Shown here: piece after piece, positions 21,134-54,562 of the stretch
Layout of the letters: each line of letters opens with the position of its first letter
How positions within the stretch are numbered: position 1 is the stretch's first letter
Sequence record: SRR31156797_1568
Reading direction: 5' to 3' (one strand)
DNA length: 64,000 bases
Position numbers and translations under genes: made by a program
The notes under the pieces: generated by a model
What the model was told of the DNA's origin: nothing
The model's database searches: none
Seen by the model: only the letters and a program-made list of their open reading frames with translations

Positions 21134-21207
21134 CGCCCCCGGCATGACTTGAACATGCGACCTCTGGATTAGGAATCCATCGCTCTATCCACCTGAGCTA
21201 CGGGGGC
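21134..21207 (-). tRNA. tRNA-Arg(CCT)
   Basis: Minus strand GCCCCCGTAGCTCAG...TGGA-TT-CCT-AA-TCCA...GTTCAAGTC...GGGGGC-G. Confidence 0.93.
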
Positions 21208-25308: not shown

Positions 25309-25542
25309 ATGAAAGTCAAAGTTTTTGTTAAGCTTAAGGATGGAGTTCTCGACCCGCAGGGGCAGACGATCCTCGGCTCCATCGTCAGGATGGGTTATGA
25401 TTTCGCTACTGAAGTTCGTGTTGGAAAATTCTTCGAAATCGAAGTAAACGACAAATCTTGTGAAAAAGAGCTGGAAAAAATCGCCGGCGATCTTCTTGCG
25501 AACCCAATTATCGAAGAATATTCTATCGAATTTGCGGAATAA
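25309..25542 (+). CDS. purS: Phosphoribosylformylglycinamidine synthase subunit PurS
   Basis: LDPQG, VRVGK, LLANPIIEEY. Confidence 0.95.
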   Translation: MKVKVFVKLKDGVLDPQGQTILGSIVRMGYDFATEVRVGKFFEIEVNDKSCEKELEKIAGDLLANPIIEEYSIEFAE

Positions 25543-33445: not shown

Positions 33446-33549
33446 GACCCGACAGGGTGACTCCGGCACACAAATAATCCTACTACCGTTGCTTCCTTCC
33501 GGACCTGGCGGGGTTCGCGGGATATCCGTTGCAGAGGCCCCATCGGGCC
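33446..33549 (-). ncRNA. ffs: Small bacterial SRP RNA (4.5S)
   Basis: Minus strand CCAGGTCCGGAAGGAAGCAACGG domain IV inside a long hairpin with paired ends. Confidence 0.95.
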
Positions 33550-33582
33550 ATTCTTAAAAGTTTTTGTCAAAACAACAAAAAG

Positions 33583-33671
33583 CGGAGAAGGAGGGATTCG
33601 AACCCTCGGTACGCGTAAACGTACACACACTTTCCAGGCGTGCTCCTTAAACCTGACTCGGACACCTCTCC
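33583..33671 (-). tRNA. tRNA-Ser(GGA)
   Basis: GGAGAGG...CACGC-CT-GGA-AA-GTGTG, long variable arm, GGTTCGAATCC. Confidence 0.95.
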
Positions 33672-51133: not shown

Positions 51134-53047
51134 CTACTTCCAAAGTTCTAAAGTCTTATTTTTGTCAAGCTCTCTTAATACACCAATATAGGTAGAAAAA
51201 TCAAGCTCATTTTTATTCTCGCCGTCTCTTAATCGTATAGAAACGAGATTATTATCCATTTCATTCTGACCTATAATGATCATATGAGGTATTTTTTCCA
51301 TCTGTGCCTCACGGATCTTAAAGCCCATTTTTTCGTTACGAAGGTCAGAGTCAACCCTGAAACCTTCCGCCTTAAGCTTACGCTCGATCTCTTTACAGTA
51401 GTCAGCCTGAGCATCAGTTACGTTTATGATACGAACCTGCTTCGGTGCTATCCATACTGGGAAAGCGCCGGCGAAGTGCTCTGTGAGGATTCCGATGAAT
51501 CTGTCAACGGAGCCGAGGATAACTCTGTGGAGCATAACGGGTCTGTGCTTCTGTCCGTCCTCGCCTATATAGTTTAGGTCGAAACGCTCAGGGAGGTTAA
51601 AGTCCACCTGAATTGTAGCACACTGCCAGTAACGCCCGATAGCGTCCTTCAGTTTAATATCGATCTTAGGACCGTAGAAGGCACCGTCACCTTCATTAAT
51701 CTCGTACGGAAGGTCTTTGGTTCTGAGAGCTTCAAAGAGTGCCTCAGTTGCCTTGTCCCAGTTCTCGACATCGCCAATATATTTCTCAGGTCTTGTGGAG
51801 ACCTCAATCTCGTATTCAAACCCGAAGAGGTCAACAACATCATTTACGAAATCGATAATTCCGATAATTTCGTCGTTGAGCTGGCTCGGTGTACAGAAAA
51901 GGTGTGCATCGTCCTGTGTAAAAGCACGCACACGCATAAGCCCGTGAAGTGCACCGGACTGCTCATGTCTGTGAACATTACCAAGCTCGAAATATCGCTG
52001 TGGCAGGTCACGGTAGCTTCTTATATCAGACTTAAACACCATCATATGTGCAAGACAGTTCATCGGTTTAACGCCGAACTCTACATCGTCTATAGTTGTG
52101 AAATACATGTTTTCACGATAGTTGTCGTAGTGACCGGATTTCTTCCACATATCCTGCTTAAGGATAGCCGGGCCGAAAACTATGTCGTAGCCACGTTTTA
52201 TGTGCTCATGCTTCTCGAAAGTTTCGAGTACGTTACGGAGCGCACCGCCATTCGGAAGATAAATAGGGAAGCCTGCTCCGACTTCTTCATCAAACATGAA
52301 GAGCTTAAGCTGCTTACCAAGTTTCCTGTGGTCACGCTTTTCAGCCTCCTCAAGCATATGGAGGTGGTTGTCGAGGTCTTCCTTAGTCTGCCAGCTTGTA
52401 CCATAGATACGCTGGAGCATCTTATTTTTTTCATCGCCTCGCCAGTAAGCACCGGCTACGGAGAGAAGTTTATAATGTTTCAGCCTCTTAGTATTATCGA
52501 CGTGAGGTCCTCGGCAGAGGTCTGTGAAATCACCCTGCTCATAGAGCGAAACTTCATCGTCACCAATATCAGTAATCAGTTCAACCTTATACGGCTCATC
52601 AGCAAATTCCTTAAGTGCATCAGTCGATTTTACTTCTCTTCTGCTGATAGGGTTCGCCTCAGATGCGATCTTAGCCATCATTTTTTCGATAGCTTTCAGG
52701 TCGTCCGGAGTGAACTTCTTATCGCCCATGTCAAAGTCGTAGTAAAAACCGTCTTTGATAGTAGGTCCGATAGTTACTTTCGCTTCAGGGAAAAGCCTGA
52801 GCACAGCCTGAGCCATAAGGTGTGCTGTTGAGTGTCTGATAATATCAAGGGACTCAGGGTCCTTATCCGTTATGATCTTTATGGTATCGCCGTCCGTAAG
52901 TTCGGCGTAAATATCTTTAGGGGTTCCGTTAATTTCGCAAGCCAACGCTTTTTTAGCGAGACCTACACTTATCTGTTTTGCTACGTCATACGCTGTTGCG
53001 CCATCTTGAACATCCAGCTTGGCGCCGTCTGGAAGTAACACGTTCAT
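51134..53047 (-). CDS. thrS: Threonine-tRNA ligase
   Basis: RHSTAHL, DLCRGPH, RDHRKLG, KPMNC, GAFYGPK; ATG 53047 after GGGAG. Confidence 0.97.
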   Translation of the reverse strand: MNVLLPDGAKLDVQDGATAYDVAKQISVGLAKKALACEINGTPKDIYAELTDGDTIKIITDKDPESLDIIRHSTAHLMAQAVLRLFPEAKVTIGPTIKDGFYYDFDMGDKKFTPDDLKAIEKMMAKIASEANPISRREVKSTDALKEFADEPYKVELITDIGDDEVSLYEQGDFTDLCRGPHVDNTKRLKHYKLLSVAGAYWRGDEKNKMLQRIYGTSWQTKEDLDNHLHMLEEAEKRDHRKLGKQLKLFMFDEEVGAGFPIYLPNGGALRNVLETFEKHEHIKRGYDIVFGPAILKQDMWKKSGHYDNYRENMYFTTIDDVEFGVKPMNCLAHMMVFKSDIRSYRDLPQRYFELGNVHRHEQSGALHGLMRVRAFTQDDAHLFCTPSQLNDEIIGIIDFVNDVVDLFGFEYEIEVSTRPEKYIGDVENWDKATEALFEALRTKDLPYEINEGDGAFYGPKIDIKLKDAIGRYWQCATIQVDFNLPERFDLNYIGEDGQKHRPVMLHRVILGSVDRFIGILTEHFAGAFPVWIAPKQVRIINVTDAQADYCKEIERKLKAEGFRVDSDLRNEKMGFKIREAQMEKIPHMIIIGQNEMDNNLVSIRLRDGENKNELDFSTYIGVLRELDKNKTLELWK

Positions 53048-53202
53048 CTTCACGCTCCCAGTAAGATTTGGAACCATAAAATATACTGATGAACCCTTAG
53101 TTTGTCAAGGTTTATAGAGGTTTTGATATATGTTTTTTCTTATTTAATTTTAATGGTTTAGAAGGATGTGATAAAAAAATGCAAAAAAGATGAAAAACAT
53201 TC

Positions 53203-53231
53203 TTGACATCCCACTGATGTTAGTGTAATTT
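53203..53231 (+). promoter_or_regulatory. Sigma70 promoter of tRNA-Leu
   Basis: TTGACA-N17-TAATTT. Confidence 0.6.
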
Positions 53232-53245
53232 CTCATTCTGCTTCA

Positions 53246-53331
53246 GCCGAGGTGGTGGAACTGGTAGACACGCAGGACTAAGGATCCTGTGCGAGTCAAA
53301 TCGCGTGAGAGTTCAAGTCTCTCTCTCGGCA
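53246..53331 (+). tRNA. tRNA-Leu with anticodon AAG
   Basis: GCCGAGG acceptor; CAGGA-CT-AAG-GA-TCCTG anticodon arm; long variable arm; GTTCAAGTC; discriminator A. Confidence 0.92.
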
Positions 53332-53334
53332 TCC

Positions 53335-53376
53335 AAAAAGGACCCTGTTATCAACTATTTGGTGACAGGGTTTTTT
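53335..53376. terminator. Hairpin between tRNA and convergent integrase
   Basis: AAAAAGGACCCTGTTA...TGACAGGGTTTTTT. Confidence 0.7.
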
Positions 53377-54562
53377 CGTTTCTGACAGCATTCTGACAGA
53401 TTGGTTTTTCTGAGGAAAGAAATGCCCCGATTTTGGGCTGCTGAAACTCTACTGCTTTCACATACTTAGCGTATCTTGTTATGACTGTGCCAACGTTTTT
53501 GTGGCCCATACGCTCTGCTATGTGAGCAAGGTTATCACCCGCCAGAATTGACAGGCTTGCGTGAGTATGTCTGCACTGATAAATAATCCTAAAAGCTATG
53601 CCAAGCTTCTTTAGTGTTGGTTTCCAAACCTGACGCATTATATGTTCTGATGATTTCCACGGCTCTCCATATTGGTTGCAAAAGATGAACTCCGACTTCA
53701 GATAAGTATGCTGCTTCTGATCTCTCAGGGCTTGCATAGCTTCCTCTGTGAGCGGAACAGTTCTCTTTGATGCTTTCGTCTTTGGCGGACAAAGATTCCT
53801 GTCGCTAATTTGTTCTCTGATATTATAGCTCTGGAACATTTCATCAAAGTATTTCCATTTCATCGCCAGCACCTCACCTATCCGCATTCCAGTATGGAAA
53901 AGGACTATGAACATATTGTATGCCTTTCGGTTCTTCTTATGCAGGTGTGTTAGGATTGCATTTACCTCTGCCTGGTTGAACGGCTCGATGTCAGGTAGAT
54001 CAACTTTGAAGTTTTTGATTCTGCCTGTAATGTCTTCATTGATGTAGCCTTTTAAATAGGCGTACTCGAAGATACGACGGAGCGGAGTCATCCTGTCATT
54101 TACAGTCTTTTTACATAGGTCATCAAGTAATGAGTACCTGTAGCTCTCAATATCTTCTACTGCAATATTATTGACCATTACATCTCCAAAGCGTAATAGA
54201 AGCTGGTTGAGGTTAGACATATACTTTTTATATGTACCTTGTGACACCTCATCAGCCCTCAGTGATCTTTCTACAATCTCTTTCCACTCGTCTGCGACAT
54301 GTTCAAATGTGAGATAGAGCTTTACCTTTGATCCAAAACGAACACACTTTTTGGAGAGCGGAAACCACTCTGCGTACTCAAATGTGCCGCTTAGGAGCTC
54401 AACCTCAATTAACTTAGCTTGCCTTTCTGCATACTTTCGTCCCTTGATGTCATTTTTTACTGCTAAGTATTCACGACATCTTACATCCCTATAATAGAAG
54501 TCAAGGAACAGTTGATTCTTATCAGTCCGTACACGCACATCTTTAGTTTTAGTCTGTGCCAA
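53351..54562 (-). CDS. Tyrosine integrase with N-terminal arm-binding domain
   Basis: HTGMRIGE, PKT, YQCRHT, MGH, RY; N-terminal LDFYY..VRCREYL. Confidence 0.93.
   Translation of the reverse strand: MAQTKTKDVRVRTDKNQLFLDFYYRDVRCREYLAVKNDIKGRKYAERQAKLIEVELLSGTFEYAEWFPLSKKCVRFGSKVKLYLTFEHVADEWKEIVERSLRADEVSQGTYKKYMSNLNQLLLRFGDVMVNNIAVEDIESYRYSLLDDLCKKTVNDRMTPLRRIFEYAYLKGYINEDITGRIKNFKVDLPDIEPFNQAEVNAILTHLHKKNRKAYNMFIVLFHTGMRIGEVLAMKWKYFDEMFQSYNIREQISDRNLCPPKTKASKRTVPLTEEAMQALRDQKQHTYLKSEFIFCNQYGEPWKSSEHIMRQVWKPTLKKLGIAFRIIYQCRHTHASLSILAGDNLAHIAERMGHKNVGTVITRYAKYVKAVEFQQPKIGAFLSSEKPICQNAVRNEKTLSPNS

Follow-up and report, generated by a model that had tools for sequence, protein, structure and literature searches.

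A clade-wide tRNA-Leu(AAG) in Deferribacterota, a probable inosine-34 decoder of CUU and CUC

The tRNA-Leu(AAG) gene described here lies in the window, the whole 64,000-nucleotide stretch of DNA that was analysed. It represents a real, clade-wide leucine decoder of Deferribacterota in which G34 is exchanged for A34, a kind of decoding already known from Lactobacillales. We put the probability that this tRNA works by inosine-34 decoding of CUU and CUC at roughly 0.7. In the mechanism that we propose, the window gene would be the host's housekeeping tRNA-Leu(AAG), standing in for tRNA-Leu(GAG) as it seems to do in 35 of 68 Deferribacterota genomes; A34 would be deaminated to inosine by the TadA of the cell, and the resulting I34 tRNA would read CUU and CUC about equally. 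An inosine is favoured because the loop sequence fits a TadA target and because CUC is heavily used. We infer that the tRNA is transcribed, leucylated and edited. The evidence base in the relatives is a conserved gene that is exclusive with Leu(GAG) and has a loop of the known TadA target type; these genomes also contain Leu(UAG), a TadA-like gene that is intact and, in most cases, Arg(ACG).

The gene and its chromosomal setting

The features of the locus, in window positions, are the following.

51134..53077, minus strand: thrS, the divergent neighbour of the tRNA; an open reading frame that ties the tRNA to the host chromosome and gives the taxonomic position of the genome
53203..53231, plus strand: likely sigma-70-type promoter, TTGACA, 17 nt and TAATTT (a weak -10), from the sequence
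53246..53331, plus strand: tRNA-Leu(AAG) gene, class II with a long variable arm (ARAGORN, Rfam RF00005, cloverleaf-like fold)
53273..53289, plus strand: anticodon arm CAGGA-CT-AAG-GA-TCCTG, from the sequence
53337..53376, plus strand: predicted terminator-like hairpin that ends in a T run and shares sequence with the integrase gene at the 3' end of the latter (fold)
53351..54562, minus strand: tyrosine recombinase of 403 aa, an open reading frame with XerC/XerD-type matches below the cut-off

ARAGORN called tRNA-Leu(AAG) exactly at 53246-53331 on the plus strand, and the Rfam model RF00005 matches the gene over its full length with 51.3 bits against a threshold of 29. The intact cloverleaf with a CT-AAG-GA loop that had been described in the initial annotation is borne out by these exact, full-length calls. 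The predicted fold of 53246-53331 is cloverleaf-like, with an energy of -32.9 kcal/mol. The loop occupies 53278-53284, with the anticodon at 53280-53282 and A34 at 53280, and it is closed by C32 and A38, as in TadA substrates; the discriminator is A73 and CCA is not encoded. The sigma70-like promoter proposed in the same annotation holds in part. A perfect TTGACA is present at 53203-53208, and this hexamer is kept at most 60 nt upstream of 34 of the 36 AAG genes (window plus 35 genomes), as compared to 298 of 10500 random 60-mers, whereas the -10 element TAATTT, at a spacing of 17 nt, is weak and the pair is absent from the list returned by a consensus promoter scan. On the other side of the gene, the hairpin at 53337-53376 folds at -22.4 kcal/mol, a value (z -4.4) that 1 of 200 shuffles equalled, and a terminator scan did not list it. 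The window sequence is found in one DNA run, on a 72 kb contig that is identical to it over the whole tRNA; this run may be the source of the window and is not independent of it. The other RNA genes of the window all look ordinary: a tRNA truncated where the window begins (1-67), tRNA-Arg(CCT) (21134-21207), and an SRP RNA and tRNA-Ser(GGA) (33447-33545 and 33582-33671).

From its protein matches the window can be assigned to a Geovibrionaceae-like genome of the Deferribacterota. The best matches of its ThrRS, in the 9 of 64 parts of the collection that were scanned, are Seleniivibrio records with 78-79% identity, which are filed under Deferribacterota, Geovibrionaceae. The window clusters with four relatives (G025-G028) in trees of PheT and PheS, and the closest TadA homologues of one of these, G028, bear the names Denitrovibrio and Seleniivibrio. 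The arrangement of thrS and Leu(AAG) is also present in L001, and a divergent thrS also in G028 and G035.

The 3' end of the tRNA is abutted by an island of low GC content, with values of 0.31-0.36 in nine of ten kb bins starting at 54000. The tyrosine recombinase is a neighbour at the edge of this island and not part of the decoding system. Related integrases are located 3' of Leu(AAG) in four relatives (G021, G023, G034 and G036) and 3' of Leu(GAG) in a fifth (G043). Since an integrase and a low-GC island lie at the 3' end of the tRNA, and integrases are found likewise in relatives, the tRNA is a host gene that probably serves islands as a target. A search of the window for another att copy of this 3' end found none. 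On other contigs of DNA run X1, a tRNA-like 3' piece was seen beside the end of a related integrase.

Distribution and origin of the anticodon arm

Pattern searches were carried out over 68 genomes of the phylum (that of G001), for which no completeness is given. Leu(AAG) was found in 35 of them and Leu(GAG) in 31 (G003-G005, G039, G041 and G043-G068); no genome had both, and two (G040, G042) had neither. The search for Leu(GAG) was thus positive in 0/35 AAG genomes, all of them relatives of the window, and no match to AAG in the 31 GAG genomes had a paired stem. Leu(UAG) is present in all 35 AAG genomes, Leu(CAG) in 30 and Arg(ACG) in 33. The earlier suggestion that Leu(AAG) has replaced Leu(GAG) in this lineage is supported across the phylum by the 35 AAG and 31 GAG genomes without overlap, and relatives with GAG, CAG or TAG at this gene, which had been named as the sign of an error or a private mutation, did not occur.

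Control samples comprised 401 genomes of Bacillota (the phylum of G070), which seem to be without the AAG genomes of Lactobacillales, and 301 genomes of the phylum of G069. The AAG pattern matched two and five of these genomes, respectively, and ARAGORN confirmed one tRNA in each sample. These lone AAG tRNAs keep GAG-type loops, TT-AAG-GT and TT-AAG-GG. The two lone Leu(AAG) genes with a GAG-type arm are located at L427:1484-1566 (G225) and L431:1461-1544 (G495), and the TadA loop of G495 is an ordinary DPKGGA.

Some further occurrences of the gene were noted. One AAG genome, G002, which contains the Seleniivibrio woodruffii record L002, has two Leu(AAG) matches at contig ends (C1:42965-43033 and C26:55-140), one of them cut off; the two may reflect an assembly overlap or the duplication of an island. 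In G006 and G007 (L204, L205), whose genomes are small (1.3 Mb) and sit on long branches, Leu(AAG) is divergent and no Leu(CAG) was found; near pheT their CTA usage is high, at 0.19 of the Leu codons. Among 82 viral-contig loci (L344-L425) matching a general pattern, 77 were called tRNA-Leu(AAG) by ARAGORN; because C32 and A38 were demanded by the pattern, the type of loop is a selected one. Many of these loci are on contigs of more than 100 kb, among other tRNAs, and some may be host DNA. Two articles state that phages lack such tRNAs (10.64898/2026.05.15.725136; PMC8007984).

The CU-AAG-GA loop is present in all 36 AAG genes (window and 35 genomes), and 30 of the 36 have the exact arm CAGGA-CT-AAG-GA-TCCTG. 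As CUAAGGA, it fits in 36 of 36 genes the sequence YUAMGRA, the editing consensus of S. pyogenes TadA (10.1101/2023.09.19.555891). Over positions 30-40, Arg(ACG) and Leu(AAG) differ only at position 35 in 28 of 33 AAG genomes, and in the other five also at position 37. Part of this likeness may reflect a general type of arm, because the GA...TC loop context is common to Leu(UAG); the GAG-bearing class members carry the same Arg arm. The 17-base anticodon arm of the window has two differences (at 32 and 34) from Leu(CAG) of G008 and G016, five from Leu(TAG) and 11 from Leu(GAG), and with these distances a simple G34A change of Leu(GAG) is ruled out. Within the class, AAG, CAG and GAG genes resemble one another in the body of the tRNA, and their flanks are not conserved between the three, which makes the neighbourhood uninformative as a guide to the ancestor, so that a descent of Leu(AAG) from a copy of Leu(CAG) by C34A and U32C would be the parsimonious proposal.

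Codon use, TadA and the mode of decoding

In purS (25309-25542), CTT and CTC make up five of the six Leu codons, the count that had drawn attention to codon use and that proved correct. The Leu codons of the open reading frames left of 53300 are CTT (0.40), CTC (0.23), CTG (0.15), TTA (0.10), CTA (0.08) and TTG (0.04). CTT richness alone is not specific to Leu, since T-ending codons also lead other four-codon boxes of the window (CCT 0.53, GTT 0.45, GCT 0.44). CUC accounts for 331 of the 910 CUY codons in the window (36%), and for 0.50 of all Leu codons in RpoBC of G033. An engineered AAG tRNA with G37 remained unedited in E. coli and read U and C in a ratio of 87:13 (PMC11066159, section 3.1). 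Such poor reading of CUC by an unmodified AAG-G37 tRNA, together with the heavy use of CUC, favours I34 and would imply an enzyme unlike that of E. coli.

A comparison of 34 AAG with 25 GAG regions of at most 20 kb showed that, at equal GC3, AAG status goes with a change of +0.063 for CTT, +0.048 for CTC and -0.128 for TTA, with CTA unchanged; the rows are not phylogenetically independent and correspond to one or two independent contrasts. The codon shift of Lactobacillales is in the same direction, CUU and CUC up and UUA down (PMC13249217). Some genomes with GAG are no less rich in CTT: in the G055 family the fraction goes up to 0.27-0.43. A TrhP-like hydroxylase was found in all five genomes tested, for which reason Leu(UAG) could share in the reading of CUC; CmoB above the cut-off was found in none of the five. 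The TadA target motif YTAAGRA has observed/expected ratios, relative to synonymous shuffles of coding sequence, of 0.80 in AAG and 0.71 in GAG regions. As the two kinds of region are alike, avoidance of the editing motif in mRNA was rejected as evidence.

A TadA-like deaminase is widespread in the phylum: PF14437 matches with E <= 1e-30 in 67 of 68 genomes, and with E <= 2.5e-35 in all 35 AAG genomes. For six of six proteins tested the best NCBIfam family is TadA, five of them being just under the cut-off (136-149 bits vs 150). The best PDB match of the G025 protein is S. pyogenes TadA (E 9e-39), followed by the enzymes of B. subtilis, S. aureus, Aquifex and E. coli. In an alignment of 50 TadA proteins (25 from AAG genomes, 21 from GAG genomes, one from a genome with neither tRNA found and three from the outgroup), the H-x-E and PCxxC motifs are kept in all 25 proteins of AAG genomes, which are relatives of the window. 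These 25 also have the sequence EPKFGG in the loop corresponding to residues 104-109 of the S. aureus enzyme, where S. pyogenes TadA has NQKFGG. In S. aureus TadA, Asp104 binds the ribose of U33 and Lys106 the C32-A38 pair (PMC3711424; PMC10586758). The loop positions concerned are 108 and 111 in E. coli numbering and are also altered in TadA-derived base editors (PMC10586758). Among 59 background TadA proteins from two other phyla (60 loci, one of which was not extracted), residue 104 is D in 53 and residue 107 is F in four.

The EPKFGG-type loop is shared by 22 class members with GAG or with neither tRNA (F in 22, E in 21 and P in 16 of the 22). Because GAG-bearing relatives have it as well, the substrate loop is a lead and not a diagnostic marker of the AAG state. 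The TadA proteins of the GAG outgroup have an aromatic residue (Y, F, Y) at the F site, combined with D. No residue in the aligned TadA proteins separates AAG from GAG class members, and the search of this alignment for a single residue unique to AAG genomes yielded none; that TadA would have a broadened specificity is something we only infer. The Glu of an N-x-x-E sequence, three residues after a conserved Asn, is lost in 19 of the 25 AAG proteins and kept in 20 of the 22 class members with GAG or neither tRNA; this observation concerns the TadA of Geovibrionaceae-like genomes (L130-L149, L191, L192). A comparison of a relative's tadA stretch with the window's DNA run gave five short pieces, less than 90% alike, and no usable match.

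Other readings of the window gene differ in how seriously they have to be taken. The window apparently stems from a single metagenome of modest depth (~18), which could raise the thought of a sequencing or assembly error, or of a private mutation in a pseudogene, yet the same type of anticodon arm occurs in 35 other species; this conservation refutes error and private mutation alike, and we regard the chance that the gene is an artefact as negligible. It is also very improbable that the AAG gene is an accessory copy which was acquired with a phage or mobile element and supplements a normal Leu(GAG) at another site of the genome. The integrase directly at the 3' end of the tRNA, the 77 of 82 pattern-matching viral-contig loci with Leu(AAG), and the fact that the absence of Leu(GAG) is known from the relatives and not from the window's genome would fit such an origin. 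Against this, the gene is on the host side, divergent from thrS in the same way as in L001, G028 and G035, none of the 35 AAG genomes has Leu(GAG), the tRNA of the window is most like those of the nearest relatives in the protein tree, and the window-specific pattern matched 0 viral contigs. A phage source of the window tRNA was rejected: even its best viral Leu(AAG) counterparts deviate from it, either in the anticodon stem or in the body.

A more serious proposal, which we nevertheless consider unlikely, is that A34 stays unmodified or is only partly modified. The tRNA would then read CUU well, with CUC being decoded by superwobbling of A34 and by Leu(UAG) carrying a hydroxylated U34. This agrees with the lack of an AAG-specific TadA residue, with the retention of Leu(UAG) in 35/35 AAG genomes and with the TrhP-like enzyme in 5/5 tested genomes. 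In E. coli, native tRNAs can be replaced by unmodified ANN tRNAs at no severe cost (10.64898/2026.05.15.725136), TadA is reported to be non-essential in S. mutans (PMC12632869), and two of four A34 tRNAs of O. oeni are unedited (PMC8072771). However, the fixation of C32 and A38 in 36 of 36 genes would be left unexplained, the more so as lone G34A variants elsewhere keep a GAG-type loop; an unmodified AAG-G37 tRNA reads CUC poorly (PMC11066159), yet CUC is heavily used; and CmoB did not exceed the cut-off in any of the five genomes. Editing of A34 to inosine would agree better with the loop and with the codon use.

History and comparison with known systems

FastTree on PheT and PheS gave one main AAG clade (0.947), with G006 and G007 apart. 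The GAG genome G068 falls inside the main AAG clade with IQ-TREE on 32 rows and with FastTree on RpoBC, and outside in FastTree on the joined set. In AU tests of nine fixed trees with 20 rows and 2000 replicates, a number that the program calls few, and with long branches flagged, the three trees with all AAG genomes as one clade were rejected (p 0.045 or lower, with long-branch caveats). The tests favour a basal position of G006 and G007 with G068 nested, and a tree with G068 branching next was not rejected. The AAG/GAG state appears to have switched at least two or three times within one class, unlike the situation in Lactobacillales. An ancestral AAG state with reversals would explain the class-wide TadA loop; because the GAG genes in question have the old type of arm, they would be regained or retained genes and not back-mutations.

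For three species of Lactobacillales (S. pyogenes, S. mutans, O. oeni) there is proof that TadA edits tRNA-Leu to Leu(IAG) (10.1101/2023.09.19.555891 = PMC11472039; PMC13249217). The Deferribacterota system resembles that of Lactobacillales in its AAG anticodon, which is exclusive with Leu(GAG), in the retention of Leu(UAG), in a loop that fits YUAMGRA, and in the apparent direction of codon use, with CUU and CUC up and UUA down in AAG regions (adjusted for GC3, with rows that are not independent). Similar to S. pyogenes TadA, the Deferribacterota enzyme has K-F-G-G in this loop and lacks Asp at the position equivalent to E. coli D108. The differences are that the system occurs in another phylum, over a GC3 range of 0.22 to 0.60, with an editing step that is predicted; that no long C-terminal extension is evident in the TadA of Deferribacterota; and that the predicted pair of substrates differs only at position 35 in 28 of 33 Deferribacterota genomes, whereas the S. 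pyogenes pair differs at 35 and 37.

With the canonical system, in which TadA converts Arg(ACG) to Arg(ICG) (E. coli 1Z3A, S. aureus 2B3J, B. subtilis 7CPH), the one described here shares the enzyme family, the zinc motifs and the C32-A38 pair, which is contacted by Lys106 in S. aureus TadA (PMC3711424). In contrast to that system, Deferribacterota have a second predicted substrate with A35, and D104 and G107 of canonical TadA (S. aureus numbers) are replaced by E and F. Unmodified A34 tRNAs, such as the Thr and Ser tRNAs of O. oeni and engineered ANN tRNAs, also have A34 in a four-codon box; unlike in these, the loop of the Deferribacterota tRNA is invariably of a TadA-type sequence, and a G34 partner was not found.

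These elements can be joined into one scenario, which as a whole is doubtful. Deferribacteres would have built an inosine Leu decoder independently of the lactic acid bacteria by turning a Leu(CAG) copy into a near-mimic of tRNA-Arg(ACG), while the TadA loop (Glu for Asp, then Lys-Phe-Gly-Gly) would have converged on the S. pyogenes form as a specificity switch for A35. The AAG state would be ancestral to the class; on at least two later occasions an old-type Leu(GAG) would have been regained and the state thereby reversed, leaving GAG relatives with a TadA that is still broadened.

Bacterial Leu(AAG) has been described as nearly confined to Bacilli, with Mycoplasma and Prochlorococcus mentioned briefly (PMC13249217). 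The word 'Deferribacter' is absent from the main texts of PMC13249217, PMC11472039, PMC8007984, PMC8072771 and PMC6063277. No published description of Leu(AAG) or inosine in Deferribacterota was found; the tables of Rafels-Ybern 2018/2019 and GtRNAdb may already list such genes, and Fig. S1D of PMC13249217 may include further phyla. A whole clade of an unrelated phylum offers an independent replicate for two open questions on Leu(AAG): how TadA comes to accept a second tRNA, which is left open in PMC11472039, and whether an I34 in tRNA-Leu is what causes codons to be recoded. The presence of AAG and GAG lineages in one class, with near-identical TadA loops, could reveal which of the two, enzyme or tRNA, was the first to change.
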